Source: a bacterium (GTDB lineage: Bacteria > Patescibacteriota > Dojkabacteria > SC72). From it: a stretch of 64,000 nucleotides of DNA. Below, in pieces: positions 5,729 through 39,684 of this stretch. The stretch lies in contig JAIOSB010000027.1 of the NCBI GenBank assembly GCA_021107795.1, positions 290 through 64,289 on the forward strand, given 5' to 3'. Numbering within the stretch: position 1 is the first letter of the stretch; each line of letters begins with the position of its first letter. The translations under genes were made by a program, and so were the position numbers. A model generated the notes under the pieces. That model saw only the letters and a program-made list of their open reading frames with translations. It did no database searches and had not been told where the DNA came from.

Positions 5729-5806
5729 ACTATTTCTAGCATAATTTAGAGCTAGATAATTGTCAAATTTAACTTACAAAGTAATCATGATATACTCGTA
5801 CACATT

Positions 5807-6730
5807 ATGAAAACTTCAAAGTTAGTAATCCTAACTTCTACAATCTGTCTTTCCCTGCTACTTCCAATTATTTTAATAGGTGTTAATCCTAAATATACCT
5901 ATGCGCATGATACAAAAGATGTTGTTGATATTCCTACTGTTTTGTTTGATTTGAATACTCAAGAGGTAAATCATGTGTTTGATTTGAGTCTAGTCACTGT
6001 AGTTATCAATGGAAGGCCTACACAGGTATTGACAAAGAGAACAGATGTTTTTGATTTGTTGAGGGATCTTGGGGTAGTGGTAGATAATAGTAAGAGGATT
6101 GTGAGTATTTCTCAAGAGGTGCAATCAGGGAGTGTAATTAGGGTAATAACTGTGGGGACAGTTGTAGAGGAACTAAATATTGACATACCTTTTGAAACAG
6201 AAAGAATTAATACAAAGGATATTCCATATGGTGATACTTTGGTCTCACAAAAGGGTGTACTTGGTATACGTACACAACAGATAGAGAAGGTTTATGAAGA
6301 TGGGAAGTTGGTATCAGAGGTTATTCTCTCTGAGGTTATTACTAGAAAGGCTAAGGGAGAAATCATTAAGGTCGGAGTATTAAGTTATGGTATTGCGGAT
6401 TTAGAGAAGACTTATGGGTACAATTGTACACATTGGAGGGGAGTTGTTAATAGTGGGAACTATACAGAAAGGGAGAAGGAGTGGTTAAACTTTGTAATGT
6501 ATTGTGAGTCTGGTTGTAATGCAGAGAGTGATAAAAACTCCGTATACAAAGGTCTTTACCAATGGAACCCAAGATATTGGAATATATTCTATCCTAAGGA
6601 TAATATTTATGATGGTTATGCTCAAATTGAAAACACTATAATAAAAATTAGAAAGGGTGCAAAGCTTTACTCATACTGGCCTGATTGTCATAGAAAGTAT
6701 GTAGCTAAGTATGGGGAGTATGATAGATAG
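5807..6730 (+). CDS. RpfB-like secreted protein (DUF348 - G5 - Rpf-type lysozyme-like transglycosylase domain)
   Basis: Signal/TM N-terminus. The DUF348-like segment is VINGRPTQVLTKRTDVFDLLRDLGV. The G5-like segment is YGDTLVSQKGVLGIRTQQIEKVYEDGKLVSEV. The C-terminal VMYCESGCNAESDKNSVYKGLYQWNPRYW...YWPDC matches the Rpf motif CE(S/A)GGN...YYGGLQF.QGTW...W..C. Confidence 0.6.
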   Translation: MKTSKLVILTSTICLSLLLPIILIGVNPKYTYAHDTKDVVDIPTVLFDLNTQEVNHVFDLSLVTVVINGRPTQVLTKRTDVFDLLRDLGVVVDNSKRIVSISQEVQSGSVIRVITVGTVVEELNIDIPFETERINTKDIPYGDTLVSQKGVLGIRTQQIEKVYEDGKLVSEVILSEVITRKAKGEIIKVGVLSYGIADLEKTYGYNCTHWRGVVNSGNYTEREKEWLNFVMYCESGCNAESDKNSVYKGLYQWNPRYWNIFYPKDNIYDGYAQIENTIIKIRKGAKLYSYWPDCHRKYVAKYGEYDR

Positions 6731-8743
6731 CTAAGAATTCCAACTAAAGTACTCACAAATATCCTGTGGTATTTCTCCTAGAAACCTAGACGGTATTTGA
6801 TCGGAATAACCTTCTCTACTCCTTCTCCTCTCTGCAAATATCATATACAGCTTCTCCCTTGCCCTAGTAATCCCTACATAACAAAGCCTTCTCTCTTCTT
6901 CCAACCCCTTCTCATCCGTAAAAGATCGTGAATGAGGGAGTATTCCCTCCTCTACTCCTATCATAAAGATATAATCAAACTCCAAACCCTTAGATGAGTG
7001 TAATGTCATAAGATTAACATTCATACCACTCCCATCCTTATTCTTATCCTGCTCCTGTTCAATCAGCGCTATCTCTTGTAAGAAAATCTCCAGTGATTTA
7101 TCACCATACTTAGTTACATAGGTATTAGCCACATTCTTTAGCTCTTCAATATTCTCTATCTTGTACTGTGCTTGTTCAGTACCATCATCTATAGATTGTA
7201 TATATTTTGTTTGAGATAGGACTCTCTCTATTACCTCTAAGGCATCTTTGCCTTGTGAACTCACATATATACTACCAAATACAACCACTACAGACTGATA
7301 TTTATTTATATCCTCTATATATGGCTCTACACTCTTAATTATCGTCTTATCAAAACTCGTACTCTCTCTAAACTCAGGATTATTCACAAGATATGCACCA
7401 ACCAGTAACTCTCCAAGAGTACACTGCACCATCTTAGCAATATCATGTAACTTAGCCACACTCTTCGGACCCATCTTACGACTTGGTACATTAATCACTC
7501 TACTTAGACTAAGTTCATCCTTTAAATTCACTACACACCGGAGGTAACTAAGAACATCTTTTATTTCCTGCCTATCATAGAATCTAAAACCTCCAACCAA
7601 CTTGTAAGGCAATCCATTACTCAAAAGCGTCTCCTCTATCATTCTCGATTGGAAATTGGTACGGTAAAGCACCGCTATAGTTGATAGGTTGACTCCTTTT
7701 CTTCTTAACTCATTTATTTCATCTATGACATACTCGGCTTCTTCCTCCTGATCCCTTGCCTGATATACCGTTATCTCATCACCATTCCCTTTGTCCGTCC
7801 ACAACTCCTTCTCTATCCTTGTATTATTTTGTCCAATTACAGCAACTGCAGCCTCTATTACATTTTTCGTAGATCTATAATTCTGTTCTAGTTTAACAAC
7901 TTTCACATTTTTAAAATCTGTTTCAAATGATTGAATATTTTTAATATCAGCACCTCTCCATGTATATATACCTTGATCGTCATCTCCTACTACACAAAGA
8001 TTTTTGTACTTTGCAGATAGTAATTTAATAAATTTATACTGTACTGCATTAGTATCTTGATATTCATCTACCATGATATATTTGAATTTCTCTTGATATT
8101 TGCTTAATATTTTCTCATTCTCATCAAGTAACTTCACACAGAGGTAGAGTAGATCACCAAAATCAACACTATTTTGTGCAAGTAATTGTTTTTGATACTC
8201 CGGATATATTTGTGCAACAACATCTTCGATGTAACCACCATAGTGATTAGGAAATTGTTCTGCAGATATGAATTCGTTCTTTGCACTAGATATGAAATAT
8301 GCTATCGATTTAGGCTTTATCTGTTTTATATCTATATCTCTTTCTAAAAGCAATTCTTTTACTAAATTCTCTGAGTCGGATGAGTCATATATTGAAAAGT
8401 TTGATGTTAGTCCTAATTCTTTCGCATTCTGCCTTAGAATCATAGCCCCTATTGAATGGAATGTACCTATTACAGGTTGCAAACCTTCTTCCACCCCTAT
8501 ATCTTTTAGCATTTCAGCTACTCTTTCTTTCATCTCTCCAGCGGCTTTCTTAGTGAAGGTTACTGCTAGTATATTTGTTGGATTGATAGATTTTTTTGAT
8601 ATGAGGTATGCTATACGGTTAGTGATAACTCTGGTTTTACCAGATCCTGCTCCAGCAAATACAAGTAGTGGTCCTTCCGTATGTTGTACTGCAATCTTTT
8701 GTTGTGGATTAAGCCTAGACAGGATTACATCACCATTGTTCAT
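6731..8743 (-). CDS. uvrD: UvrD/PcrA-family ATP-dependent DNA helicase
   Basis: LNPQQKIAVQHTEGPLLVFAGAGSGKTRVITNRIAYLI (helicase motif I/Walker A), DEYQDTN motif II, and C-terminal ...GLEFDYIF...LCYVGITRA motifs. Confidence 0.9.
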   Translation of the reverse strand: MNNGDVILSRLNPQQKIAVQHTEGPLLVFAGAGSGKTRVITNRIAYLISKKSINPTNILAVTFTKKAAGEMKERVAEMLKDIGVEEGLQPVIGTFHSIGAMILRQNAKELGLTSNFSIYDSSDSENLVKELLLERDIDIKQIKPKSIAYFISSAKNEFISAEQFPNHYGGYIEDVVAQIYPEYQKQLLAQNSVDFGDLLYLCVKLLDENEKILSKYQEKFKYIMVDEYQDTNAVQYKFIKLLSAKYKNLCVVGDDDQGIYTWRGADIKNIQSFETDFKNVKVVKLEQNYRSTKNVIEAAVAVIGQNNTRIEKELWTDKGNGDEITVYQARDQEEEAEYVIDEINELRRKGVNLSTIAVLYRTNFQSRMIEETLLSNGLPYKLVGGFRFYDRQEIKDVLSYLRCVVNLKDELSLSRVINVPSRKMGPKSVAKLHDIAKMVQCTLGELLVGAYLVNNPEFRESTSFDKTIIKSVEPYIEDINKYQSVVVVFGSIYVSSQGKDALEVIERVLSQTKYIQSIDDGTEQAQYKIENIEELKNVANTYVTKYGDKSLEIFLQEIALIEQEQDKNKDGSGMNVNLMTLHSSKGLEFDYIFMIGVEEGILPHSRSFTDEKGLEEERRLCYVGITRAREKLYMIFAERRRSREGYSDQIPSRFLGEIPQDICEYFSWNS

Positions 8744-8770: not shown

Positions 8771-9940
8771 TTATATTTCTTTGGCATATTTACCATATAC
8801 CCAACCCTCTTTATCTTGCCCAAAGAGTATTTGATACCAACCTTCCTCTTCTTTTACTACAATATATACCTCCCCATCGTTCGCAACATCTATTTTCTCG
8901 CAGCTATACCACCTACATTCCCTTATATTCACGAACCCAAACTCTGGAGAGACCATTTTTACTAATGTATTATCACCTTTGGTTACAGTAAACTCAACCA
9001 CAAATTCAGAGTCTGAGAAGACTTCCTTCTTGAATTTGTAAATCTCGAATGTTTCTACATTTTCTCCGGGTAATACCTTAGGATCTAACTTAAATGTCAT
9101 CTCTATACTTTCTCCTGGTAGTACATATCTGTCAGAAGAAATATGTGTTGGTTTACTAAAACTGTCCCACTCCCCATTAAGAGCATATATACTTTCTTTA
9201 GAATCTTTCACTGATATATATATTGGGTATTTATCAGAAAGCCATACAAAGTCATTTCCATTCTTTATAGTTACTTTAACTTGCAGTGTATTCCCTATCT
9301 CTACAGCCTCTTCATATTCTACACTCTCAATCTCAGCTACATACTCCAAGTGTTCTCTCTCACTAACCTTCCATTCTTCTAGGCTATCACCAATTGATGA
9401 CTTAAACAGGTTGTTGGATTCCACTAGCTCAAGTTTTGAGAGAGTGGCTTCTGATTCTACGATATTGAAAGAATGGCTGTCATATTGAGTAATTCCATAT
9501 TTGTGAGATAGGTCATTCGCAAGTTCTAGAATGGAGGATTTTGCTTTACTACTTACTTGTGCATTATTCGATAGATATGCTACTACAATATATTTTGCAT
9601 CTGTAAGTTTTAAAGTATCTACATTTTGTGTACTGAATATATCTCCATTTTCATCAATTGCGTAGTGGAAAGGTATATTTCCTAGTTTCAGTTTTGTAAT
9701 TGAGTAGTAATATGTTACATCAAGGTAATCTTCTGTACTTAGGTTTAAGGTGTCGTAACTTCCCTCAACTTGCGTAAAGAGGATTTTAGTTGGTTGTTGG
9801 TATTGATATTCTACACCAGCGACTAGAGAAGTATCAAAATCGGAGTATGATTCTTCATATCCTAATATTGGAGTAGTAAATATTGCAAGGAAAAGGATTG
9901 TTAGTAAGATATTTTTAATTTTCATATCACATTGTACCAA
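8771..9940 (-). CDS. Secreted protein with C-terminal SH3b-like domain; possible cell-wall binding. An amidase_2-like N-region is uncertain.
   Basis: Signal peptide MKIKNILLTILFLAIFTTPILG, so the true start may be Met6. The C-terminus FVNIRECRWYSCEKIDV..GEVYIVVKEEEGWYQILFGQDKEGWVYGKY fits the bacterial SH3 pattern. The FHYAIDENGDIF...VVAYLSNN segment only weakly resembles amidase_2. Confidence 0.4.
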   Translation of the reverse strand: MVQCDMKIKNILLTILFLAIFTTPILGYEESYSDFDTSLVAGVEYQYQQPTKILFTQVEGSYDTLNLSTEDYLDVTYYYSITKLKLGNIPFHYAIDENGDIFSTQNVDTLKLTDAKYIVVAYLSNNAQVSSKAKSSILELANDLSHKYGITQYDSHSFNIVESEATLSKLELVESNNLFKSSIGDSLEEWKVSEREHLEYVAEIESVEYEEAVEIGNTLQVKVTIKNGNDFVWLSDKYPIYISVKDSKESIYALNGEWDSFSKPTHISSDRYVLPGESIEMTFKLDPKVLPGENVETFEIYKFKKEVFSDSEFVVEFTVTKGDNTLVKMVSPEFGFVNIRECRWYSCEKIDVANDGEVYIVVKEEEGWYQILFGQDKEGWVYGKYAKEI

Positions 9941-10882
9941 TTATTCTACACTTTTGACATATTCAGGATCAATTGCATTCATGAATCCTACAAAAGGTAC
10001 ACTAAAGAGTTCTTTTTCATATTCAACATCACATACTCCTGAGATTTCGTAGGAGTAGTATAGGTAGTTTTGATTACAATTGACAAAGTAAAGGACTGGT
10101 TCAACCGTATTGATAGAACATTTTTCATATTTTAATTCCACATCCATTGTCTCATATGAAAACTCGTCAACTTCTATCATTCCAGTTGCATCAATGGTTA
10201 TACTTTTAGGATATTGAGGAGAGGAGAGATATAATTCTAAAACATTGGTTTCCGCTATCATGGGGACTATATATTCCGATTTCTCAATTTGTGCTAGTAA
10301 TACTCTCGCAGTACTTAAATATCCGTTTGTTAAATAGAAATAGTCAGAGCTACCCGAGCCTACTTTCACCTCTTTTTCATCGATAATTCTATTAACCCTA
10401 TACATCCTAAAATTTTCTCCTTCGTCTATGATAGGGGTAGTATATTTAATTGAAGTGTCTAAGTAAGTCGATATGAATTCTTCTATGGTGCCAAATCTTA
10501 TCGCTTCAGGATATTTCGTAAGATTTATCATAAGGACTGTAGTGTCAATATCATATCTTAATACCTCCGCATTATCTTTCTCCCATTTTACAAAATTCAT
10601 ATCAGAGGTCTTTTGCAAACTACTATCTATTTCAAATGCAAATTGGTCTAGATATTCTGGGATTGTGTTAGATTTACAAATATAGAGGGGGGAATCTCCT
10701 GATTCAAGTTCCACATCTATTCTAAGATTGTATTCCTTGTAATCACTGAGGTAGGGATTTGCATCTACTAGCTCACTTTCTAATACGTTTGGCTGGAGTA
10801 AAGAGTAAAGAAGGAATATTCCTGCAAGAAGCATTGTTACTACACCTACCACTATTAAGATTTTTAATGTTTTTTTATTCAT
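9941..10882 (-). CDS. Hypothetical membrane-anchored extracellular protein
   Basis: N-terminal TM (LKILIVVGVVTMLLAGIFLLYSLL); no recognisable domain; stop/start abuts neighbouring genes. Confidence 0.45.
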   Translation of the reverse strand: MNKKTLKILIVVGVVTMLLAGIFLLYSLLQPNVLESELVDANPYLSDYKEYNLRIDVELESGDSPLYICKSNTIPEYLDQFAFEIDSSLQKTSDMNFVKWEKDNAEVLRYDIDTTVLMINLTKYPEAIRFGTIEEFISTYLDTSIKYTTPIIDEGENFRMYRVNRIIDEKEVKVGSGSSDYFYLTNGYLSTARVLLAQIEKSEYIVPMIAETNVLELYLSSPQYPKSITIDATGMIEVDEFSYETMDVELKYEKCSINTVEPVLYFVNCNQNYLYYSYEISGVCDVEYEKELFSVPFVGFMNAIDPEYVKSVE

Positions 10883-10897
10883 AATTTTTATTAATTA

Positions 10898-13807
10898 TTA
10901 AGGACGACAAGGTGGACATTTTGATTCTGATTGAACTCCATTTACACAACCCATATCCACTAAGAAAGCGATAGGGTCAATATATTGACCGTTATGTGTT
11001 ATTGTAAGGTGTACATGAGCTCCTGTCCAGCAATAGAAAACCCCATTCTTATTAGGCCTGGTTGTCCCCAAAGGATCATCAGCAACTATCTCAGCTGCAT
11101 ATTGGTAGATATATGCGACTGGCTCACCAGCTTTGTAGTTACGACCATTTCCTGGAGGTATTAGTTTGGTATGCATGAGATTAAACACATTTCCCTGACC
11201 ATCACTGAACTCTATATTCCACCCAGTAAAACCACCGTCAGTACATCTCCATGCAGCCATGCTTGATAGTTTTGCTGTACAGGTAGAGGTGTCACAATAT
11301 TGTGGAGCGAAGAAAAACTTCATTCCTGCTAAGTCTACTGGGTATAGATTTGTAATATTCTTGTGAGAACACTTTGTATTACTAAATCCCTGAGTACAAC
11401 GATATTTGACATCACCAAATGGACAGCTAGAATTGGTTGGTGCAGGGATATTGATAGGAGGAGGAACAAAGTTACCACTAGAATACAGATAGCCAGAGCT
11501 AAATCCTCCATATCCTCCAAAACCTTTATTTTCGTATATGGTACCTGGTATTTCTCTAGAATATGAATCTACTGAGGCCCTATTGCTATACTCACTTGAA
11601 GCTCCAATTAACAATATTAGTCCAAATACCCCGACAAAAGCATAAACAATTACCTTTATCGACAACTTCGTAACTCCTTCCATAACCCAAGCTACTACCA
11701 CTGTCACGGCTGTACCCAAAGGACCTGCAATTGCAGTACCTGCAAGACCAAATGCTGCGACAATACCTTGAGATATAGCACTTGATAAGGCAGCTCCTCC
11801 TGTTGCCTTCCATGATGTCAATAAAGCCATAGCAGCTTTGTCTTTTGTAAAGAATTTAAGCTTAGAGAGAACAGAGAATACACCCTTTCTTATACCCGTT
11901 TGTACTTTCCCCAAGGTTTTTTCTTGAAATAGACTCAACATCCTTGCAGGTGTGCTAAATATAGCTGTAACTTTAGACCATTGTTCAAGTGCATTTGATA
12001 TTTTCTCAGCTTTAAAAAATTTTTTAGCAAAAGCACTGTTTTCATCCCCTAAACCTTTTAGAACATAGCCCAATATATTTCTGTATTTAGGTTCTTTGGC
12101 AAGCAATTGGATTTGTTCCGTAGAATTAAGTTTTTTGTATTTTTTATAAAATTTCCAGAATTTAGGATCTTGCAATTCTTTGAATACTCCAGACTTAACA
12201 CTCCACATTTTCTTGATTTCTATTTTTTTATTATCTGCCACCCATGCAAACCCTTCTCCTGTAAACATAGATTTTACCCAAGTTGCTGGGTTCATATAGT
12301 AAAATCGAACCATACCATCGTTGTATGCATCTCTTAAATTTCGCTTATATGAAATCTCTGCTGATTTTGATTTCACAAATTCTACTTTATTCCACTTCCC
12401 CTTGCCAATTAATATTGTACCCGCATTATCTACTGGGCAGCCATAATATCCTTTAATAGGGTTGTAGAAATCCCCATTGAGAATAGCTTCAATTCCTCCT
12501 GGTCCAAAAGTCTGTTTCACCCCATAATAAAGACCCTCAGCTGCTCCAATTCCACTCCACAATTGAACACTATTCAAAGATCTTCTCGTCGATCTTAATT
12601 GTTTAATATTCTTTTGAGCTACAGATATCTCAGCTCTCTTCTGTGATTTTGACAATTTGCCATAATCTATAAGATTACTACCTGTACCAAATGTCTTCCC
12701 ACTTCTAATAGCTTTTAATCGGTCTCTTAACTCTTCCTCGTTAGATCGGATATTGCTCTTTGCTCTCTTCAATTTAAAAAGTATTCCCTCATCTTTACTT
12801 CCATCAAGACTCTCTGCTCCCTTCATAGCCCTAGCATCGAGAGTGTCATACTTTTTCCATAACTCTAAGATATTATTCGAACTTTCTAGCTTATTATATT
12901 CCACCAATTCTTTTGCTGTTAGTTGAGACTTCGTCCTGTTACCTAACAAATCGTTTTGCCTTTCTTCAAACTCCAGACCTAAAAGGCTCCTAAATGTTTC
13001 AGCACTAGAAATTGTGTCGGTAATCTTATCTATATTATCTTGAGTGTCTTCCCACCGTTTACTATCCGTTTTCTTGTTCAAATTCTTCAAAGAGGCTTCT
13101 AATGCATTAATACCTTCCATACCATTAAGAGAATTAATCTGATTGGTTAACTTCTCCTTCAGCTCCTTTCCTTTCCTTGTATTTTCATCCACCTTGTTCT
13201 TTCTTGCAATTAATTTTCTAACGTCAGTCCTACTCACATATCCATCTTTTCTTAATTCTTCAGAGGCTCGTACAATCCATTGCCTATCTCTAGGACTTCC
13301 CGAATCTTGGGCTGCCTGTCCTACTGCTCTCTCAAGGGTATTTTTAAGATCCCCATACCCCTCGAATAGCCCCATCTTTTTGGCATATGTACTCCCTGCT
13401 AAATATCTCATAGCCTCACCAGCCCATCTGATATTCTCCATTTTAGATATGGTTTTGTTTGTCTCAAAGAGTTTGTCTATGAATTCATCAGGCTTCTCGA
13501 AGAAATCGGGTAACCCACTTGCTGTCAGCTTGACTACAGGTATACGACTAGTCTGTACTCCCACTTTGATAGTCGGATCAACCAGTCCTTGCATAGCTCC
13601 TAGGAATTGATCTCCCACAAACATCCCTGGCATAGCCAATGCATCTACCAAGGTTTGTACATACTCAGAACTTGCTTGACTATCTGCTGTTGGTGGAGGT
13701 CTTACTGGTTTCCTTTGCTCTGGAGGTAATTCAGATTGTTCCAGAACAAAACCTAGGATATCTGATACAGATGATATTGTTTTATCCTTACCCTTATATC
13801 CAGCCAT
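10898..13807 (-). CDS. Large bitopic protein: ~690-aa cytoplasmic coiled-coil-rich N-domain, 2 TM helices, extracellular C-terminal M23 (LytM-type) peptidase-like domain
   Basis: No signal peptide. The TM pair is ...IVAAFGLAGTAIAGPLGTAVTVVVAWV... / ...VIVYAFVGVFGLILLIGA... The C-terminus has the M23 pattern VFNLMHTKLIPPGNGRNYKAGEPVAYI...GTTRPNKNG...CWTGAHVHLTITHNGQYIDP (HxH with flanking Gly-rich loops). Confidence 0.55.
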   Translation of the reverse strand: MAGYKGKDKTISSVSDILGFVLEQSELPPEQRKPVRPPPTADSQASSEYVQTLVDALAMPGMFVGDQFLGAMQGLVDPTIKVGVQTSRIPVVKLTASGLPDFFEKPDEFIDKLFETNKTISKMENIRWAGEAMRYLAGSTYAKKMGLFEGYGDLKNTLERAVGQAAQDSGSPRDRQWIVRASEELRKDGYVSRTDVRKLIARKNKVDENTRKGKELKEKLTNQINSLNGMEGINALEASLKNLNKKTDSKRWEDTQDNIDKITDTISSAETFRSLLGLEFEERQNDLLGNRTKSQLTAKELVEYNKLESSNNILELWKKYDTLDARAMKGAESLDGSKDEGILFKLKRAKSNIRSNEEELRDRLKAIRSGKTFGTGSNLIDYGKLSKSQKRAEISVAQKNIKQLRSTRRSLNSVQLWSGIGAAEGLYYGVKQTFGPGGIEAILNGDFYNPIKGYYGCPVDNAGTILIGKGKWNKVEFVKSKSAEISYKRNLRDAYNDGMVRFYYMNPATWVKSMFTGEGFAWVADNKKIEIKKMWSVKSGVFKELQDPKFWKFYKKYKKLNSTEQIQLLAKEPKYRNILGYVLKGLGDENSAFAKKFFKAEKISNALEQWSKVTAIFSTPARMLSLFQEKTLGKVQTGIRKGVFSVLSKLKFFTKDKAAMALLTSWKATGGAALSSAISQGIVAAFGLAGTAIAGPLGTAVTVVVAWVMEGVTKLSIKVIVYAFVGVFGLILLIGASSEYSNRASVDSYSREIPGTIYENKGFGGYGGFSSGYLYSSGNFVPPPINIPAPTNSSCPFGDVKYRCTQGFSNTKCSHKNITNLYPVDLAGMKFFFAPQYCDTSTCTAKLSSMAAWRCTDGGFTGWNIEFSDGQGNVFNLMHTKLIPPGNGRNYKAGEPVAYIYQYAAEIVADDPLGTTRPNKNGVFYCWTGAHVHLTITHNGQYIDPIAFLVDMGCVNGVQSESKCPPCRP

Positions 13808-13817
13808 ATATTTTTAT

Positions 13818-15266
13818 TTACTTTATTAATTTCCCTAACAATGGAATTCCGCCCAAAGCCTGTTTTGCAGCTTGTGCTGCATCCCCTGCATCTTTTGAGG
13901 TCGTAGGTGGTAGTAAAACTTTAGCGTATACATCTGCTTTAGAAGCTATAAAGATGACGAAGATTTGTAATACAAAAATTAATAATCCACCAAGCAAGTC
14001 TTGACTCTGATCAATTTGCGCTGTTGTTTGAGGAAGTGTGAGCTTATCCGGTCCTGGTAGCGATAAACCACCATCGCTTACAGCATAAAGAACTCCTGGG
14101 ATATTAAGAATTGCAAATGTAATCGGATATACTAACACATTTCTCATAATACTTTTCATCCAATTGATAAAACTTGCACTTTGACCTGGAATAGCTGACA
14201 TAGCAATTTGGAAAGGACCTGTTATTACAGCAATTAGAATACCAATATATGCCTTTATTAAAGTTAGAAAAACCTTAAAAACACCGACTGTCACTACAGC
14301 TAAAATAGCCAATACCAAGATTAATCCTACAAGTCCAACGACGACACCTGTAAGAGGGGCTGCAATAAATCCAACGACAACACCTATAGCTGCAGTTCCA
14401 CCAACAAGACCCAGTAACCCACCCTTACCTCCAAAGTCTGCAAATTGAGTCATTTCTTCAAAAAGGCCTTCCGGTGTAAACGCCCTAAATATACTACCCA
14501 AACTTTCCAGTGTAATAGGGTCACTATATTCACTACTACTAAAAATATCTACTAGAAGGACCATCATGAGCCCTCCAATATCTATTATCACTCCCGCTAT
14601 TGCAAAACTAAAGGTAACCCCTATTAACGCAAGAATAATGTTTGGTAGAGTATTCCCAAGAGTCACTAATGTCTGTCCTCCTAGTTTACTTCTAAACATG
14701 ATCATGAATCCAACAACTATCATGATTAATATGAAGAATACATAAGTAATATTCCTAACCTGTGACCATAATCCACTGATACCAGTATTAACCAACTCAT
14801 CATATCCTGAGTCAAATCCACTAGTTGTAATACTTGCATACACAGAACTATCTGCCTGATAACCAGGTACCCACTCTTCTGCCAAATGCGCATATACATT
14901 AACAAGAGGTTGTGATTCGTATAAAGCATATACTCCATCGGATGTCATACCATATATACCTCTTTTCATGTCAGGCGATATCGTATCTGAGTCCAACATT
15001 GCTTGATAGTCTGAAGATATTTCTGGTGCTAGATAAATAATTGCATTAACCACTGCGGTATTGGCACTAACAGCCTGTGACCTAGCAGAGTTATACTCAT
15101 CTCCCTCTGCCCCCTGCCCCACATTCACAGCTTCTACAGTAGATCCATATGATCCACTAAGGTCTAAACCTGTGTATTCTTGAGCATACGCATTAGTAGA
15201 TAAGAAGAAGAAAGCTATAACAAGTACTGACCAAAACAAATCTTTATTAAATCTATTTATTTTCAT
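13818..15266 (-). CDS. Polytopic membrane protein, VirB6/TrbL-like topology (signal peptide, ~150-aa extracytoplasmic segment, ~7-8 Gly-rich TM helices)
   Basis: Signal peptide LFWSVLVIAFFFLSTNAYAQ, then hydrophilic Ser/Tyr-rich segment, then consecutive hydrophobic Gly-rich helices (GLLGLVGGTAAIGVVVGFIAAPLTGVVVGLVGLILVLAILAVV...). Confidence 0.4.
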   Translation of the reverse strand: MKINRFNKDLFWSVLVIAFFFLSTNAYAQEYTGLDLSGSYGSTVEAVNVGQGAEGDEYNSARSQAVSANTAVVNAIIYLAPEISSDYQAMLDSDTISPDMKRGIYGMTSDGVYALYESQPLVNVYAHLAEEWVPGYQADSSVYASITTSGFDSGYDELVNTGISGLWSQVRNITYVFFILIMIVVGFMIMFRSKLGGQTLVTLGNTLPNIILALIGVTFSFAIAGVIIDIGGLMMVLLVDIFSSSEYSDPITLESLGSIFRAFTPEGLFEEMTQFADFGGKGGLLGLVGGTAAIGVVVGFIAAPLTGVVVGLVGLILVLAILAVVTVGVFKVFLTLIKAYIGILIAVITGPFQIAMSAIPGQSASFINWMKSIMRNVLVYPITFAILNIPGVLYAVSDGGLSLPGPDKLTLPQTTAQIDQSQDLLGGLLIFVLQIFVIFIASKADVYAKVLLPPTTSKDAGDAAQAAKQALGGIPLLGKLIK

Positions 15267-15290: not shown

Positions 15291-16631
15291 TTACATCTTA
15301 TATACAGGATCTGTTCTATTCTCACTCTCCCATACATGAAAATTCATATAATCCATTCTATCAGGAAATACCTCCTGAGGCATATTATCATGTGACTGAA
15401 ATTCTAATTCTTGAGTAATATAGTCAATATCCCAAGCACAAGAAAGAGCCTTATTACCATATCCTCCAATATTTGCATAACAAGTTGTTAAGACATAAAT
15501 CTTCTGTGACTCATCAGCATTTGGAATTGAAAAACTTCCATTTCTTAACTTATTGAACTCCGTTACACACTTTCCATCAATACAATCTGCTTTACTACCC
15601 CAAGGAGACTCCATAATTACAACAATACTTGCAGTATTTATACAATTCTCATCTGCACCACTTATGCTAGAACACCTATCTGCATCAAAGATATTCATTA
15701 TTTCCTTAAAAAACGATATTACAATTTGCTTAAGACTTGGAGTACAACCTATCATCTCTGTATCTAAATCCATATTGATAAATGTAGTGTTCGTATCACA
15801 ATCATCTATACCATCATCTTCTTGCTCTGGAATATTTTCATAATATCCTGGATAATTCTGTGATTGACCCAATACATATGATCCAGACAAATATTTCTCT
15901 GGTGTCGGGTTAGAATAGTTTCTACAAGCTGCTCCACAATCATTAACTTGATACTTAGAGATAGAGATTTCACTTGTACCTGAGCCTTTGGCATTAGCAG
16001 TACCTTCAATGGAATAATTAATACCAAAAGATTTCGTTTTAGAAGCTTCCCCAGCATCTATAATAGCTTGTGTCTGAGTCTCTCCTGGGTACATATTCCC
16101 TGCAACCACTTCTTTATTAATCATCTCTCCCGCAGGTCTTAGTGTCCAGTGTTCAGTACCATCTTCTTCAGTAAATATTTGCCTAACAGATGAGTCCATA
16201 GTTGGAGATCCATTCAAAAGAGGTGGTACTTCGATACTAGTAAGAGAAATCGAAGCCTTTCTATCTACCATATCCCCTATACTCAGTTCTCTATCTTCTT
16301 TACCCATGTCCGCATCGAAAGAGAAAGTCCTAGCACATACTTTCTCGGAGGAATAGCTGTAGAAAGGAGTTACACATACATCCTGTTCTCCTAAAACCAT
16401 TCCTGGTTTAACCTCTCTAATCGGTTTGAAATTTTCATCTATTTCAAAGAACAAAGCTTGTTCCAATTGCCAGTCCTCTTCATTGGCCTCTACTTTCTCA
16501 CGAAGTACATACTCTTGAGTATCAGCTTGGATATGAGTAACCCTTTGTGTCTTGTTTATAACAAAAACCCCAAACAAAATAAGGAAAGATAAAAGAAGGA
16601 CAGGTTTTCGCGAATACAATTTCTTTGACAT
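15291..16631 (-). CDS. Cys-rich secreted/anchored hypothetical protein
   Basis: N-terminal TM (PVLLLSFLILFGVFVI), many paired cysteines (CGAAC, CDTNTT, CIDGKC), acidic. Confidence 0.45.
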   Translation of the reverse strand: MSKKLYSRKPVLLLSFLILFGVFVINKTQRVTHIQADTQEYVLREKVEANEEDWQLEQALFFEIDENFKPIREVKPGMVLGEQDVCVTPFYSYSSEKVCARTFSFDADMGKEDRELSIGDMVDRKASISLTSIEVPPLLNGSPTMDSSVRQIFTEEDGTEHWTLRPAGEMINKEVVAGNMYPGETQTQAIIDAGEASKTKSFGINYSIEGTANAKGSGTSEISISKYQVNDCGAACRNYSNPTPEKYLSGSYVLGQSQNYPGYYENIPEQEDDGIDDCDTNTTFINMDLDTEMIGCTPSLKQIVISFFKEIMNIFDADRCSSISGADENCINTASIVVIMESPWGSKADCIDGKCVTEFNKLRNGSFSIPNADESQKIYVLTTCYANIGGYGNKALSCAWDIDYITQELEFQSHDNMPQEVFPDRMDYMNFHVWESENRTDPVYKM

Positions 16632-16669: not shown

Positions 16670-18283
16670 TTAATCTATAAGAATGCCATAATCAGAAAGT
16701 AATGGGATTGAACTGTATGCTGAATTACTTGAATCAGAGACAGAGACTTCTACTTCTTCAGAAACAGCTTCTCCAACAGTCATTTCTGTAGCTGAAGGGT
16801 TTGTGAAATATTTAGAACTAAAGTTAACGATATCATCATTACTTTTATCGAAATATCCGCCCTCTGCATCTCTTGCTCCACCAATTGTCAAAATCCAAGA
16901 CCCTTCACTATCTACTAAGGTAGATATCGGGTAGCTTGTACCACTAGAACCAATACCGTCATTGTCCGTAAAGGTTGCAACAACAAGAGCATTTTTATAA
17001 TCCACAACCTCAAGAATACCTACAATGGTCTCAAACTGTGGAGGGCTGGATTGTGTAGCAAAAGTTTTTACTTCACCTTCATATTCATATACATCTTCTC
17101 CCGAGTATATTTCAAAAAAGTATGTTGTCTCTGGTTGTAATTGTGCAATCTCAATACTATGCAAGAAATATTCTCCTTGAGACGCTATACCATCTCTCTC
17201 ATCTCTCCCTTTATTAGACAAATCTGATGTAGTAGTTCCATACATTACATAGCCTTGTTGTGATTCCTTAGAGAACCATATTATCGAACAACTAACATCC
17301 GTAAGATTTGTAATCATTACACTCTCTACTCCATATACCTCCGGTTGAGAAGGCACTACTCCACTATTTGATACCATATCAATCCAAGCTAAATCACTCT
17401 TAAGTTCGTATAGGTTATCGGGAGTTTCATCTTCAATTTTCTCTTCTTCTTCTACCACAGGTACTACATATGAGTCTTTTTCTTCAATTATCATATCAGG
17501 TTTTTCACCTTCTTCTGTAGCTACAAGTTTCGTAGCGTCAGAGATATAGGTATCATATGGACTTCCAAAGATTACAAGCGTTTCCGTTAGTTTCATACTA
17601 GAATCAAAGATTGTCCCATATTGTCCTTCTACCACACCTGCATTCCCAACACTTGACACTCCCAGTATTACTAAGTCTGTTGAGTCTAACAGTGTATACA
17701 TACTCTTATCCTCAATACTTCTTAACGATGAGAGATCCACTAACCAGTTCCCATTGCTAGATGGAACAGTTGCTACTGGGTATGTCGTTTTGTCCTTGGG
17801 GAATATATATATTAGGGCATCGTCATCACTTATATCAGAGAGTTCTCCATGTACGGGTGTAGGGGTTGGAATATCTGCACTAATATTGGCTGTAGTAAAA
17901 CTAAACTCTTCCCCTTCTATATCTGTGTACATATCTTCTCCTGATATGATTTTAAAATCATATTCTGTATTTGGTTCTAAACTTTGAATTTCAACGTAGT
18001 GAGTATTTCTCTTCTCATTTCCCCTCTTATCTATCACTGGATTTTTCTCAGTTCCATTGAGTACAGGGATTACCGACCCTATTACTTCACTTTCAGTAGT
18101 CCATGTTACTGTGATGGAATTGGTAGTAAGGTTTGCAAGTATTGCATCTTTGGGTTGTGTATTTACTCCTGCATTTGTAAACCATCGTGCACCACTGTAT
18201 ATGGCAAAGAGTGTAAGAGGAATACCTAGTACCAGCGTAATTATTGTAGTTAGTTGCTTCTTTTGGTATGGAGTTATGTACAT
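16670..18283 (-). CDS. N-terminally anchored protein with two Fn3-like (purple-acid-phosphatase-N-like) domains
   Basis: TM anchor LTTIITLVLGIPLTLFAIYS. Repeat 1 is NSITVTWTTESEVIGSVIPVLNG...HYVEIQSLEPNTEYDFKIISG. Repeat 2 is CSIIWFSKESQQGYVMYG...LHSIEIAQLQPETTYFFEIYSG. Confidence 0.5.
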   Translation of the reverse strand: MYITPYQKKQLTTIITLVLGIPLTLFAIYSGARWFTNAGVNTQPKDAILANLTTNSITVTWTTESEVIGSVIPVLNGTEKNPVIDKRGNEKRNTHYVEIQSLEPNTEYDFKIISGEDMYTDIEGEEFSFTTANISADIPTPTPVHGELSDISDDDALIYIFPKDKTTYPVATVPSSNGNWLVDLSSLRSIEDKSMYTLLDSTDLVILGVSSVGNAGVVEGQYGTIFDSSMKLTETLVIFGSPYDTYISDATKLVATEEGEKPDMIIEEKDSYVVPVVEEEEKIEDETPDNLYELKSDLAWIDMVSNSGVVPSQPEVYGVESVMITNLTDVSCSIIWFSKESQQGYVMYGTTTSDLSNKGRDERDGIASQGEYFLHSIEIAQLQPETTYFFEIYSGEDVYEYEGEVKTFATQSSPPQFETIVGILEVVDYKNALVVATFTDNDGIGSSGTSYPISTLVDSEGSWILTIGGARDAEGGYFDKSNDDIVNFSSKYFTNPSATEMTVGEAVSEEVEVSVSDSSNSAYSSIPLLSDYGILID

Positions 18284-19375: not shown

Positions 19376-22300
19376 CTAGTTATTACCACATTGACCATCT
19401 AATTCACCATCTGGATGCCATATTAATGATTTGCATGTACTGTCTTCTGGTTGAAAGCTAGATATTCTCACAAAGTAGCCATTTGATGTAGTTATTGGAT
19501 AATCAAAACCATATTCTGTTCCCTCAGAGACTTGCAACCCCTCAAACATACCTTTTGATACAGGCCACCATGTTATATTATCTGCAGTTAAGCCTGAGAT
19601 TCTATTCACTGAGTCAATGAGTGTACGTGCTGTAAATGCTTTAGTATACCCACTTACTCCGATTAAGTTCCAACCAGGTATAAAACTTACAGGTACATTC
19701 GTATTAATATCAAATCCAGGAATAGGTATTCTACTATTCCTAGTAGCTACTATCGCATATCCAAAGCCTGGTAGTAGAGGGAAGTCAGAGCCGGCAGGAG
19801 TTCCTGATTCTGTAGACTTACTCATAATCCCTCCCTTCCACGATCCGTTGGAGAAGTATGTTATCTGACTGATTACTTCAAATTGGCTATTAGCTTCTTC
19901 CAATAGTTGTTCTGCAGTGTAGGATTCCCCGACATTCAGTGCAGGATAGAAATCGAATGATACTAGGTTTAAGCCCTCTTTCAGCACTATATCATACGCA
20001 TTAGATACTTGATTGACACTTAGTTCCAGCACACTAGATGATACTAAGTAGTCTCCATTTGCCACATCAAATTTCCCGTCATTGTTTATATCTTTATAAT
20101 ATATATATTTATAGTCAGCATTATAGTATTGCACGACGTTCTCACTATCTGGTCTAATTACTTCATAGTAACCATCTTTAGTCACACTTAAAAACAGCTC
20201 TTCCGTCTCTTGGGCCGACACTTTAGGTGCTGAGAAAGAGGCGATTTCCTGGAGGATATTATCCAAATTTAATGTACTAGTTTCAGAACATTCTCCAAAC
20301 GGTACAATTTTATATCCAGCTACACATCCTTTACCAACTTCTTGTTTTTGTTTTACTCCAAACCCACTATCACAACAGACATACCCTTCTTTAACATACT
20401 CTGTATCGAATGTAGCTGTACCACCTCCTGTTTTTATAACTGTATTAAAACTCTCACCATATATGGTTTCTAAATCAGCTTTCTGACCACAGGCATTAAA
20501 TTGAACCTCTATATCCCCTTTTGAGGTCAGGCAGTAATATTGAAGACCCTCAATTTCCTCCAAAGGTAGTAACCAACGATCGTCAAAAGAATCTTTATTA
20601 AAATCTCCGAGACTTTGCTTTGTTGGAGTCGCATAAGGAGTCTCGACTGATGGCCCAGAATAGTAATAATAATCTCCATCATCATCCAGATATATGTAAT
20701 CTCCATTCCAAGTAGGACTACCAACGTCATTTGCTATCACAAGATCCTCCGTTATAGTCTCTCTTAAAAAGTACGAGGCAGAGACACACTCTTTATTACC
20801 GCACTCATCACAATTGATAATATTTCCTTCATCCTTATTGAAACAGTACATCTCGTTTTCCAAATTAACAGATTTCACTACCTTATCAGCACAATACTCA
20901 TAAAAGTCTACCGTTTCATACTCACATTGACCAATTCCAGTTGGGTAGTAATTAGGGATATATACATAGCTAGATTCCTTTTTTACATTATGACAACACT
21001 CTAAGGCAATCACTTCTCCACTATCATTAGTTACAAGAGGTGCGAAATCTTCTGCAGACAGATTCCCTGATAATGAAGATTCCTCACCCTCCTCATTTGA
21101 GACGCTAGGTTGGCACTGAAACCAGAAGGATTCGCAGGGTGTGCCGTAATCGTCCTGGCTGGGACAGTTTATGAGATCATAGTCTGTAGTATAGTCTGAG
21201 CAGCGGAGTTTTCCCTCCTCCTCTTGATCTACACTTTCCTTCGGTTTAGGAGAAGGTAGTCCAGGATTATTACCCATACACTCGCTTTTCTCTTTATCCC
21301 AATAACAACCTCCATAATAATTCTCATTACAAACAGTTTCTGTAGTATAACCACTACAACCAGTTATCTCAGGACCCTCTACTACAAGTTCTATCTTGTC
21401 CTCAAGAAATCCCATAATCTCAGCACTCCCCTGCAAATCTCCAATAATATCTTCATATTCCGACGAATCTACAACGTCGACATTACCTGATACACTGTTT
21501 TTAACAAGTTCTCCATCTAATAAAGTATAGAGATTCCCTGCAGCATCTACTACTTGATCCTCTCCTATAACCTTCTTTTCTCCATCAACCTCAACCATCT
21601 GCCTACCCCTCTCCATACACCCCGCAGGCTTTGGACAAAGAGCTTGCAATCGGATATTAAATTGGCGAACTCCATTCCATAGACAAGTCTTGTAACAAGG
21701 ACTTGTTGGTGCACAACCACCAGCAAGAATAGGTCCATAAGAGACTGTTTTCCCTTCACTGTCCTCACACCTTGCCTCATCCCATGCAGCATTGACATAA
21801 GGTATAAAGGATTCTAATAAATCCTCTGCATTATTCTCAAAATCTATATCCTCTTCACTATTACCCAAGATACTCTCTACAGGAATATCATCTGTTCCAA
21901 AGGTTATCATATAGCACTGCTTTGGAGTAAAAGACTCATATTGATAACAAACCTCACCATTCATACCATTTATATCATCAAATACAGAACCATTTAAATC
22001 TCTAAAAGCCCCCTTATCAATACTCCACCCACCCTCACTATTAGTAGAAGCTGAAAGTAAATTAGAAATCAAAACATTACTCTCATCTACTACCCCTACA
22101 AAAACCATAGAATCTTTAGAGTCATCCTCATACAACAATCCTCCCGTATCAAGCTTCATACCATAAATCTTCCCATACATTGGATTAGGGACCACCATCT
22201 CGACAACATCCTGTATAACAGTTGTAACAGAAAACTCACTGAGAGTATCAAAAGCATATTCATATGAGTTTGTCTTACTACTAGACCATAGGAGTGAACC

Positions 22301-22714
22301 ATTTGATAATACAAAATTGTAAATCTTTCCTTCTTCAAGACCTGAAACAGTAACATGATGAACGTAATATTTATTATTCTTTACCTTGTATTCATTCAAA
22401 CAGTCAATACTATCTACACCACTCTCAAGTGCATCATTATTCAAATCTTCAACACAACTGGCCTGGGCTAAAACAACATCTCTATCATCATATGCAAACC
22501 TAACACCATTACTCCAGTACATTACAAATCCCTGTGTAGGCTGATGTGTTAGCCAGGATATAGTTGCAGAAGATGCAGTAATATTGGTAACCCTGACATC
22601 ATATGCTTGGAGCTTATTGCCCTGTACAATATAGTAAACTAGATAAGAGAAGGATATTAGCACAATAACTGTTAAGAGTCCCAATCCAAACATCTTGCTT
22701 CTTTTCATATTCAA
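19376..22714 (-). CDS. Giant (1112 aa) Cys-rich surface protein with N-terminal anchor and Fn3-like (PAP-N-like) domain
   Basis: TM anchor FGLGLLTVIVLISFSYLVYYIV, then the Fn3-like signature VTNITASSATISWLTHQPTQGFVMYWSNG...HHVTVSGLEEGKIYNFVLSNG. After that come >40 cysteines in clustered pairs (CDECGNKEC, ECCHN, VCCDSG). Confidence 0.5.
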   Translation of the reverse strand: MNMKRSKMFGLGLLTVIVLISFSYLVYYIVQGNKLQAYDVRVTNITASSATISWLTHQPTQGFVMYWSNGVRFAYDDRDVVLAQASCVEDLNNDALESGVDSIDCLNEYKVKNNKYYVHHVTVSGLEEGKIYNFVLSNGSLLWSSSKTNSYEYAFDTLSEFSVTTVIQDVVEMVVPNPMYGKIYGMKLDTGGLLYEDDSKDSMVFVGVVDESNVLISNLLSASTNSEGGWSIDKGAFRDLNGSVFDDINGMNGEVCYQYESFTPKQCYMITFGTDDIPVESILGNSEEDIDFENNAEDLLESFIPYVNAAWDEARCEDSEGKTVSYGPILAGGCAPTSPCYKTCLWNGVRQFNIRLQALCPKPAGCMERGRQMVEVDGEKKVIGEDQVVDAAGNLYTLLDGELVKNSVSGNVDVVDSSEYEDIIGDLQGSAEIMGFLEDKIELVVEGPEITGCSGYTTETVCNENYYGGCYWDKEKSECMGNNPGLPSPKPKESVDQEEEGKLRCSDYTTDYDLINCPSQDDYGTPCESFWFQCQPSVSNEEGEESSLSGNLSAEDFAPLVTNDSGEVIALECCHNVKKESSYVYIPNYYPTGIGQCEYETVDFYEYCADKVVKSVNLENEMYCFNKDEGNIINCDECGNKECVSASYFLRETITEDLVIANDVGSPTWNGDYIYLDDDGDYYYYSGPSVETPYATPTKQSLGDFNKDSFDDRWLLPLEEIEGLQYYCLTSKGDIEVQFNACGQKADLETIYGESFNTVIKTGGGTATFDTEYVKEGYVCCDSGFGVKQKQEVGKGCVAGYKIVPFGECSETSTLNLDNILQEIASFSAPKVSAQETEELFLSVTKDGYYEVIRPDSENVVQYYNADYKYIYYKDINNDGKFDVANGDYLVSSSVLELSVNQVSNAYDIVLKEGLNLVSFDFYPALNVGESYTAEQLLEEANSQFEVISQITYFSNGSWKGGIMSKSTESGTPAGSDFPLLPGFGYAIVATRNSRIPIPGFDINTNVPVSFIPGWNLIGVSGYTKAFTARTLIDSVNRISGLTADNITWWPVSKGMFEGLQVSEGTEYGFDYPITTSNGYFVRISSFQPEDSTCKSLIWHPDGELDGQCGNN

Positions 22715-38240: not shown

Positions 38241-38681
38241 ATGACTCAATATCCAATACTAGCCATAGACTACGGCACAAAACACATAGGACTAGCAATA
38301 TCAGACTTCAAAGGAATAATTGCTACACCACTAGAAGTATTACATATCACACAAAAAAACGGATACGAAAAAATAGTAGAAAAAATCTCCGACATATGCG
38401 AGAACAATAAGGTACAAACAATACTCTTAGGGAAACCTCAGATTTTTCACATTTCACACCAAAAAACAATAAAGAAAATAAATCAATTTGAACAAATCTT
38501 AAAAGACGGTATCAAATTACCAATCCTTTTCCATGATGAAAGCTACTCTACAATTACCGCCCAAGATATGCTACTATGCACAAGCCAATCAACCAAGAAA
38601 AGCAGAAAGAAAATCGACAGTGTAGCTGCCGCTGTATTCTTACAAGAATTCTTAAATTCAAAATCACAAGACAATGTTTAA
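38241..38681 (+). CDS. ruvX: YqgF/RuvX putative pre-16S rRNA nuclease / Holliday-junction resolvase-like
   Basis: ILAIDYGTKHIGLAISD at the N-terminus (RNase H-like fold signature), ~146 aa. Confidence 0.75.
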   Translation: MTQYPILAIDYGTKHIGLAISDFKGIIATPLEVLHITQKNGYEKIVEKISDICENNKVQTILLGKPQIFHISHQKTIKKINQFEQILKDGIKLPILFHDESYSTITAQDMLLCTSQSTKKSRKKIDSVAAAVFLQEFLNSKSQDNV

Positions 38682-39684
38682 AAGCTTAAAATCCCTCATA
38701 AAGATATTCACACTCGCATTAATAACAGTAATCATTGGAGGAATATTCATCAAACTTAAATACAACAAGATAATTGAAACTCCAAATAGTGACTCTAGTG
38801 AAAAGATAACAATAACAATAAATGAAGGTCAAGCTGTAGACCTCATTATCGATGAACTCATTGATGCTGGAGTTATAAAAGAAAGCTGGAGAACATACCT
38901 TAAAACATACCTCAAACTAAATGACCTTTCATCAAAAATTCAAGCAGGTACGTACAACCTACCACTCAATCTTAATATAATAGAACTCATAGAATCACTC
39001 CAACATGCAGACAGCCAAGACATATGGATCACCATCCCGGAAGGTCTACGAAAAGATGAAATTGCAGATACTCTCGCAGAAGAATTTCTACCATATAGTA
39101 CTATCGATTTCTCCTCAACAGAATTCCTCTCACTAACAACAGACTCTGAATACATTTCTCAATTTGAATTTAACGACGAGGTGAATAATCTTGAAGGATA
39201 CATATTCCCAGATAAATACGCATTCTCAGTAGATAGTACTACACAATCCATACTAACTAAAATGATAACTACCTTTGTAACTAAAGTTGGCACTAATGAT
39301 ACATATGAAGACATCATCATTGCCTCAATGGTAGAACGAGAAGGATACAACAGCACAGATAGAGCAATCATTGCAGATATCATTAAAAGGCGATACAGTG
39401 AAGGATGGCTACTACAAATAGATGCAACACTACTCTACCCTGTCAAGGACTGGAAACATGTAATTACACAAACAGACAAGAACTCTGAAAACCCATATAA
39501 TACATATAAGTACCCTGGACTCGTACCAACACCAATATGCAACCCAGGACTAGAAGCTATTAATGCAACAAGAAATCCAAAGCCAAATAATTACTACTAC
39601 TACATACATGAAGATAATGGGACACCACACTACTCAACAACCCTAAATGAACACAATGCAAATGTAAATCAATATTTAAGATAA
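38674..39684 (+). CDS. mltG: Endolytic murein transglycosylase MltG (YceG-like)
   Basis: N-terminal TM, then ...QAGTYNLPLN... and WITIPEGLRKDEIADTL (the conserved catalytic Glu context of the YceG family); overlaps ruvX by 8 nt. Confidence 0.65.
   Translation: MFKSLKSLIKIFTLALITVIIGGIFIKLKYNKIIETPNSDSSEKITITINEGQAVDLIIDELIDAGVIKESWRTYLKTYLKLNDLSSKIQAGTYNLPLNLNIIELIESLQHADSQDIWITIPEGLRKDEIADTLAEEFLPYSTIDFSSTEFLSLTTDSEYISQFEFNDEVNNLEGYIFPDKYAFSVDSTTQSILTKMITTFVTKVGTNDTYEDIIIASMVEREGYNSTDRAIIADIIKRRYSEGWLLQIDATLLYPVKDWKHVITQTDKNSENPYNTYKYPGLVPTPICNPGLEAINATRNPKPNNYYYYIHEDNGTPHYSTTLNEHNANVNQYLR

Follow-up and report, generated by a model that had tools for sequence, protein, structure and literature searches.

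The DNA analysed here, referred to as the window, is a stretch of 64 000 nucleotides (nt) from a bacterium of the Candidatus Dojkabacteria/WS6 lineage, and the gene under study is an open reading frame (ORF) at positions 5807..6730 of its forward (+) strand. The ORF is complete, with an ATG start, 307 amino acids (aa) and a stop codon. The product is 100% identical to NCBI MCD4756533.1, which is annotated merely as 'G5 domain-containing protein [bacterium]'. A sequence-only reading of this DNA had proposed that the gene encodes a protein with the architecture of RpfB, a resuscitation-promoting factor (Rpf), outside the Actinobacteria. The lineage bears out the latter, and the data described below point to a predicted cell wall enzyme of the RpfB/YabE class.

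The neighbours are the TPR and EF-G genes upstream, and the genes for a helicase of the UvrD type and an SH3 protein downstream. Two stop codons, that of the gene and that of the convergent UvrD/PcrA-type helicase gene (6731-8743, - strand), lie directly side by side, and a short intergenic region separates the gene from the divergent TPR gene. This region carries promoter-like hexamers for both directions, identified as consensus matches. The + strand candidate, TTAACT-16-TATACT preceded by a TG, occupies 5769-5796, ~10 nt upstream of the start codon. The 78 bp contain no obvious Shine-Dalgarno sequence. The GC content of the gene is 0.353, compared with 0.364 for the window, and its third-position GC content of 0.295 is in line with that of the neighbouring genes. 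The coordinates of the gene's features are collected in Table 1.

Table 1. Positions in the window of the predicted domains, conserved codons and upstream region of the gene
Feature	Position	Strand	Details
Intergenic region	5729..5806	.	78 bp, divergent, between the TPR gene (-) and the gene under study
N-terminal export segment (predicted)	5807..5905	+	residues 1-33: basic MKTSK, ~21 hydrophobic residues, site between T-Y-A and H
DUF348-like ubiquitin-like (beta-grasp) domain, single	5981..6151	+	~residues 59-115
G5 domain	6152..6382	+	~residues 116-192
Lysozyme-like catalytic domain (predicted), C-terminal	6383..6727	+	residues 193-307 (115 aa)
C207 codon	6425-6427	+	just upstream of the 6503..6688 span
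Span with three of the four conserved cysteines	6503..6688	+	C233 6503-6505, C237 6515-6517, C294 6686-6688
Glu234 codon, predicted catalytic acid	6506..6508	+	same alignment column as the CESGGN Glu of Mycobacterium tuberculosis RpfC and RpfE

The N-terminal segment has small residues at positions -3 and -1 of the T-Y-A/H site. In the AlphaFold model a helix (residues 2-23) is followed by a disordered linker (25-39), and the N-terminal pattern is kept across the family alignment of 30 sequences, whose members are 34-83% identical to the protein. These features suggest a signal peptide or a membrane anchor, with export and cleavage predicted on the same basis. A conserved cysteine, Cys14, sits in 'STIC', which does not match a lipobox; the protein is without a canonical lipobox, unlike RpfB of M. 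tuberculosis, which is a lipoprotein.

The G5 segment named in the sequence-only reading was confirmed by Pfam, with PF07501 matching residues 124-190 (E = 2e-14, 54 bits against a cut-off of 23) and all 30 family members. Among solved structures it matched the G5 domains of SasG, Aap, HP0197 and StrH. The DUF348-like segment proved to be real, but as a single sequence it is weak: PF03990 matched residues 63-93 with 19-21 bits (E = 3e-4 to 1e-3), just below the Pfam cut-off of 24, and 12 of the 30 family members matched at E<=0.1, the best at 1e-3. The ubiquitin-like fold of this segment was borne out by the model, which has beta-beta-alpha-beta topology and a predicted local distance difference test score (pLDDT) of 85-89 in this region, and by Foldseek, whose matches for the region were the ubiquitin-like domain in RpfB 5e27 and further folds of that type. 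Pfam returned no domain in the protein besides G5 and sub-threshold DUF348 and PF06737 (Rpf), and the sole NCBIfam match was a meaningless match of the G5 region to the adhesin PclA.

The full AlphaFold model, generated from a family alignment, has a mean pLDDT of 81. Following the helix and the linker it consists of the beta-grasp domain, a long beta G5 domain and a helical C-terminal domain. The best PDB match of the full model by Foldseek was RpfB of M. tuberculosis (5e27, E = 1.6e-13, 243 columns), a fragment which comprises the ubiquitin-like DUF348, G5 and catalytic domains. RpfB 3eo5 was second (2e-9), with G5 structures thereafter, and the RpfB arrangement proposed from the sequence was upheld. 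The high root-mean-square deviation to RpfB reflects a flexible arrangement of the domains.

The C-terminal domain and its relation to Rpf

All three motifs previously noted as an Rpf signature were present in the C-terminal domain, namely C233-E-S-G-C-N238 (nt 6503-6520), Y247-KGLYQW253 and W291-P-D-C294, the last ending at nt 6688. The domain is the best-conserved part of the 30-sequence alignment, with C207, W210, C233, E234, S235, G236, C237, E240, Y247, K248, G249, L250, Q252, W253, D269, G270, Q273, W291, P292 and C294 all invariant. The invariance of the motif residues across 30 family members places them far beyond chance. The catalytic Glu that had been assigned to the CESG motif, E234, is present and is also invariant in all 144 remote homologues examined. 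The part of the domain that aligns with Rpf covers ~residues 229-298 (nt 6491-6700), and residues 204-228 form two helices that are extra to the compact Rpf domain.

The cysteines fall into two pairs. C233 and C294 align with cysteines of RpfC (the Rpf pair); they are invariant in the family, and both are present in 117 homologue sequences. C207 sits in the added N-terminal helix and C237 replaces the second Gly of CESGGN. Across 198 homologues of residues 193-307, C207 and C237 were both present in 132 and both absent in 64, with only two discordant sequences. Such covariation is the pattern expected of a second disulfide, and both disulfides are predicted from these patterns. The C207/C237 pair appears to mark a four-cysteine subfamily, which to our knowledge has not been described.

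The relationship to Rpf was most apparent from profile comparisons. A profile of the domain built from the family alone gave a sole, weak match in the whole PDB, to RpfC (E = 0.16), which spanned all of the Rpf domain and kept both CESG and WPxC aligned. With the same family profile, HMMER returned 153 proteins out of 1.84 billion representatives, and among the 147 of these that were scanned with Pfam, PF06737 was matched by 72, SLT by 59, G5 by 67 and DUF348 by 23. Many of the metagenomic homologues (P0063, P0065, P0066, P0089 and others, 120-200 aa) are barely more than the catalytic domain with a short N-terminus, and carry motifs such as CESRCR...GLFQWSPYYW. A wider, second-round profile, built on 70 domain sequences, matched RpfC (1.3e-9), RpfE (3e-9) and RpfB (1.4e-7 to 1.8e-6) in the PDB over the full domain, followed by a mycobacteriophage tape-measure protein (9b45, 2.4e-5). 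The best SLT-type enzyme was found at 7e-3, as a partial match, 5-6 orders worse than Rpf. The wider alignment gave 98.5% probability (E = 2.5e-15) by hhalign against a reference set of 40 actinobacterial Rpf proteins. Against the actinobacterial Rpf profile, the median score was 11 bits in the Dojkabacteria family and 21 in the homologues one ring further out, among which the maximum was 41. The two groups are bridged by sequences such as P0073, whose scores are 78 bits for the Dojkabacteria profile and 41 for that of Rpf.

By these data, the catalytic domain is truly, though distantly, related to Rpf through intermediate sequences; by the same comparisons it lies outside Pfam's curated Rpf boundary and belongs to the same superfamily as SLT. 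The earlier identification as Rpf stands in so far as RpfC, RpfE and RpfB are its nearest solved relatives by profile, and falls short in that the protein scores below the PF06737 threshold.

The protein resembles RpfB of M. tuberculosis (Rv1009; 5e27, 3eo5, 4emn) in its predicted export, in the order of a ubiquitin-like DUF348-type domain, G5 and a C-terminal lysozyme-like domain, in the location of the catalytic Glu within a CE(S/A)G motif and in the conserved flanking cysteine pair. The two differ in several respects. RpfB has three DUF348 domains before G5 and Rpf (PF03990, PF07501, PF06737), whereas a single DUF348-like domain is found here, and the catalytic domain is ~115 aa, compared with ~75 for Rpf, with two extra N-terminal helices (207-216, 221-235). 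The motif CESGCN, with its second covarying cysteine pair, stands in place of CESGGN of Rpf, and GLYQW in place of GGLQF of RpfB. RpfB, unlike this protein, is recognized by PF06737 above threshold and belongs to the Actinobacteria, not the Dojkabacteria.

YabE/SpsB proteins of the Firmicutes consist of two to three DUF348 domains, G5 and a 3D (Sps) domain, PF06725 (Ravagnani et al. 2005, PMC1084345). The accessory module of DUF348 and G5 is shared, and both proteins are presumed to be muralytic wall remodellers. However, the catalytic domain is unrelated (helical and lysozyme-like, with no 3D domain), the genomic context differs, and the YabE-type proteins P0055-57 align over the accessory part only, the N-terminal 44% of the query. 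A 3D domain of the YabE type was also considered for the C-terminus and was ruled out, in agreement with the sequence-only reading: PF06725 gave no match in the protein at E<=10 and none in the 30 family members at E<=0.1, and the high-confidence model of the domain has a helical, lysozyme-like fold.

Lineage, gene order and descent

A protein search yielded 54 close relatives of 35-100% identity, measuring 280-327 aa save for one fragment of 169 aa. All 54 are labelled with G5 alone and some are named Candidatus Dojkabacteria. Scanning one genome per species gave 45 related loci with 33-83% protein identity, in assemblies assigned to Dojkabacteria/WS6 or carrying the generic labels 'Patescibacteria' or 'uncultured Saccharibacteria'; three of these loci are on single contigs of 725-750 kb. 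The order of genes was the same in 45/45 loci: the EF-G and TPR genes are divergent from the gene under study, and the genes for the UvrD-type helicase, the SH3 protein and two uncharacterised proteins converge upon it. An orthologue of ~28-36% identity, P0069, keeps the same synteny.

The gene is an old core gene that Dojkabacteria have inherited vertically, and not a recent import, because the same synteny is found in 45 loci and the composition is native. The low score (~11 bits) against the actinobacterial Rpf profile likewise argues against a recent import from Actinobacteria. This status in a lineage of the candidate phyla radiation (CPR) is in keeping with vertical inheritance among bacteria of the Gram-positive type rather than with transfer of the gene.

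Horizontal acquisition, which the sequence-only reading had raised, is not supported by these results, and recent transfer from Actinobacteria or a phage, which they contradict, is scarcely credible. The statement of 2005 on the confinement of Rpf predates metagenomic sampling. That description of Rpf as 'confined to the actinobacteria' (PMC1084345) would favour transfer, as would the Rpf-like motifs in the phage tape-measure protein (9b45). Against these stand the identical synteny over 33-83% identity and in the more divergent P0069, the native GC and third-position GC, the very low score against the actinobacterial profile and a scan of viral contigs, in which no relative of the protein was encoded. 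On synteny, composition, divergence and the empty viral scan, recent horizontal transfer or a phage origin was rejected.

RpfB and YabE genes occupy a tatD-rpfB/yabE-ksgA neighbourhood (Ravagnani et al., PMC1084345). This tatD/ksgA context is absent from the locus and from the 45 related loci, where EF-G, TPR, UvrD and SH3 genes are found instead. The classical context was encountered with a metagenomic protein, P0140 (L047 2440-3462), in which DUF348, G5 and SLT/PF06737 are assigned by precomputed Pfam. The gene for P0140 has an M23 peptidase gene on one side and rsmA(ksgA) on the other, and tatD is close by; this is the neighbourhood typical of RpfB/YabE, joined by an endopeptidase gene.

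P0140 is one of a group of metagenomic DUF348-G5-PF06737/SLT proteins (for example P0072, P0140 and P0347-P0354) with the same architecture as the protein described here. Their catalytic domains were matched by the Dojkabacteria profile at E values of 1e-19 to 1e-4, and many share the four-cysteine form C..W...CESxCN. These proteins reach the Pfam thresholds for Rpf and/or SLT, whereas the Dojkabacteria family does not.

The occurrence of an RpfB-like protein in this lineage, described beforehand as unexpected, is not very unexpected. Proteins with DUF348, G5 and PF06737 are present among metagenome proteins without a taxon, with JGI labels of 'RpfB' or 'YabE (DUF348 family)', and a third protein search returned 16 proteins with Pfam labels and JGI names. 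In a 2025 preprint the rpfB KEGG orthologue K21688 is reported as enriched in oral Patescibacteria. Apart from this one preprint, nothing specific was found in the literature on Rpf in the CPR or Saccharibacteria; other literature matches to 'RpfB' probably concern an unrelated quorum-sensing gene that shares the name.

Proposed function and its alternatives

The reading that we favour, with a probability of roughly 0.6, is that the protein is an exported, wall-associated cleaver of peptidoglycan glycan strands, of the RpfB/YabE class, which remodels the cell's own wall. The N-terminal hydrophobic segment would take the protein across the membrane or anchor it there, and the ubiquitin-like (DUF348-type) and G5 domains would serve as a spacer or as a wall-binding arm. 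The lysozyme-like domain would then cut the N-acetylmuramic acid-N-acetylglucosamine (MurNAc-GlcNAc) backbone, with Glu234 of CESGCN as the general acid. Two disulfides are probable in this domain, C233-C294, as in Rpf, and C207-C237. Remodelling of the organism's own wall in growth and division would be the most likely role, because the gene belongs to the vertically inherited core of Candidatus Dojkabacteria. Substrate, catalytic chemistry and housekeeping role are all predicted, and a lytic transglycosylase is not separable from a muramidase on these data.

Elsewhere in the window an endolytic transglycosylase of the YceG/MltG family is encoded at 38674-39684 (+; PF02618, E = 2.7e-68), directly followed by an LCP (LytR_cpsA_psr) wall-polymer ligase at 39696-41159 (+). 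The presence of MltG/YceG, a second glycan-cutting enzyme, together with the LCP ligase indicates that the organism builds a decorated peptidoglycan wall, which would provide the substrate for the protein.

Several results weigh against this reading. The match of PF06737 to the protein reached only 13.3 bits (E = 0.13, cut-off 27) over profile positions 8-43 of 77, and hhalign with the Dojkabacteria family alone gave 49.6% probability (E = 1.7e-4, 68 columns). The SLT profile was matched by 59/147 remote homologues and by 44/70 in another set, and placement as Rpf-like or SLT-like is a matter of degree within one superfamily. When fold is the sole criterion, Rpf is equalled or beaten by c-type lysozyme and SLT enzymes; Foldseek with the catalytic domain alone was weak, with phi29 gp13 first (0.04) and RpfC and RpfB at 0.3-0.4. 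Fold alone cannot split Rpf from SLT or lysozyme, and so the Rpf assignment rests on the sequence profiles. Furthermore, the housekeeping role draws on conservation and synteny only, and activity and localisation are predicted from the sequence and the model.

These points bear most directly on whether the C-terminal domain would be better classed as SLT-type (GH23 family 1) or as a generic lysozyme, with the likeness to RpfB confined to the accessory domains. We regard this as unlikely. PF01464 (SLT) had no match in the protein and matched 0/30 family members at E<=0.1, compared with 8/30 for PF06737 (best 0.0099), and the PDB profile searches placed Rpf chains 5-6 orders above SLT enzymes. 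The complete Rpf domain was aligned, including the cysteine pair of CESG...WPxC, which is absent from SLT, and the cysteine pattern is of the Rpf type, unlike that of SLT-type lytic transglycosylases. Among the fold matches of the domain the highest sequence identity, 23-26%, belongs to RpfC. With respect to SLT motifs, ES and GL(Y/F)Q are present in the 30-sequence family alignment, in which the third, AYNAG-like motif was not found. Unlike c-type lysozymes (GH22), no lysozyme-type second catalytic Asp was identified in the protein.

Two further alternatives retain a cell wall enzyme and differ in the wall or the purpose that it serves. That the protein is a true resuscitation-promoting factor, a secreted muralytic signal that mainly wakes dormant producer or host cells, a role put forward for the Rpf proteins of Actinobacteria, is improbable, though its RpfB-like architecture, the homology of its catalytic domain to Rpf and its predicted export signal are all in keeping with such a role. 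Sequence cannot separate signalling from ordinary wall remodelling, the domain is very distant from those Rpfs that have been studied by experiment, whose profile it matches at ~11 bits, and the tatD-rpfB-ksgA context is absent from the locus. Similarly, the protein may be a weapon or an attachment tool that breaches the peptidoglycan wall of a host bacterium in the service of a possible episymbiosis; we consider this very doubtful. Predicted export, the adhesive-type G5 domain and lineage-wide conservation are compatible with it, as are the small genomes of relatives (single contigs of 725-750 kb) and a TraG/VirB4-like ATPase in the window, which hints at machinery for cell-to-cell transfer. 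However, the adjacent genes encode only EF-G, TPR and UvrD proteins, with no secretion-system, immunity or effector genes among them. In Actinobacteria and Firmicutes, proteins of this architecture act on the wall of the cell that makes them (PMC1084345). The organism has wall machinery of its own in MltG and LCP. Own-wall remodelling by an exported glycan cleaver remains the preferred reading.

A broader proposal, which we offer as a long shot, is that the four-cysteine 'C..W...CESxCN' form represents a distinct Rpf-like branch centred on the CPR and largely missed by curated profiles. In Dojkabacteria it would be the principal exported glycan cleaver, and would also open, or signal through, the wall of a partner cell. 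If a four-cysteine CPR branch did act on the walls of partners, it would offer a handle for coaxing uncultured bacteria into growth.

For the protein itself, the annotation can be advanced from 'G5 domain-containing protein' to a predicted RpfB-class exported glycan cleaver with a named catalytic residue. The RpfB/YabE class, once believed to divide neatly between Actinobacteria (Rpf) and Firmicutes (3D), has an Rpf-like core gene in a CPR lineage. The covarying second cysteine pair is a subfamily signature that could help to extend profile libraries. Practical interest is modest, the protein being a candidate autolysin for the division of ultra-small bacteria.

Other genes of the window

The SH3 neighbour (8771-9940, -) encodes 389 aa, with a C-terminal bacterial SH3 domain (PF08239) and an N-terminal part of ~330 aa without a detectable family. 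A motif resemblance had made this protein a candidate for a hidden amidase partner; this was rejected, as there was no Pfam support at E<=1. Beyond it lie four ORFs on the - strand between 9941 and 16631, at 9941-10882, 10898-13807, 13818-15266 and 15291-16631, which encode 313, 969, 482 and 446 aa respectively. Save for trivial matches, no Pfam family was found for these at E<=1. The first two (9941-10882 and 10898-13807) keep their synteny with the gene under study across Dojkabacteria loci at just 24-30% identity. The ORFs at 16670-18283 (-) and 19376-22714 (-), of 537 and 1112 aa, contain domains of the fibronectin-III and purple-acid-phosphatase N-terminal types, and from these domains their products look like surface proteins.

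The TraG/VirB4-type protein is encoded at 51369-53759 (+), and has 796 aa and P-loop ATPase domains (PF19044, E = 6e-28), which suggests an apparatus resembling type IV secretion or DNA transfer.

The window is densely coding and rich in housekeeping genes. Over positions 1-64000 no tRNA genes were found by ARAGORN and no Rfam family at the gathering score. Genes are mostly on the - strand to ~32.4 kb, on the + strand from ~32.4 to 53.8 kb and on the - strand again after ~54 kb. The AT skew flips together with the coding strand at ~32400 and ~54000, with values of +0.13 to +0.34 in the + stretch, and the cumulative GC skew falls throughout the window.

An ORF of 446 aa at 56480-57820 (-) has a weak, partial match to ThyX (Thy1) and is far longer than the usual ThyX. 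It adjoins the genes for serine hydroxymethyltransferase and FolD (57831-59066 and 59047-59913), and may encode an unusual protein related to thymidylate synthase within a folate cluster.

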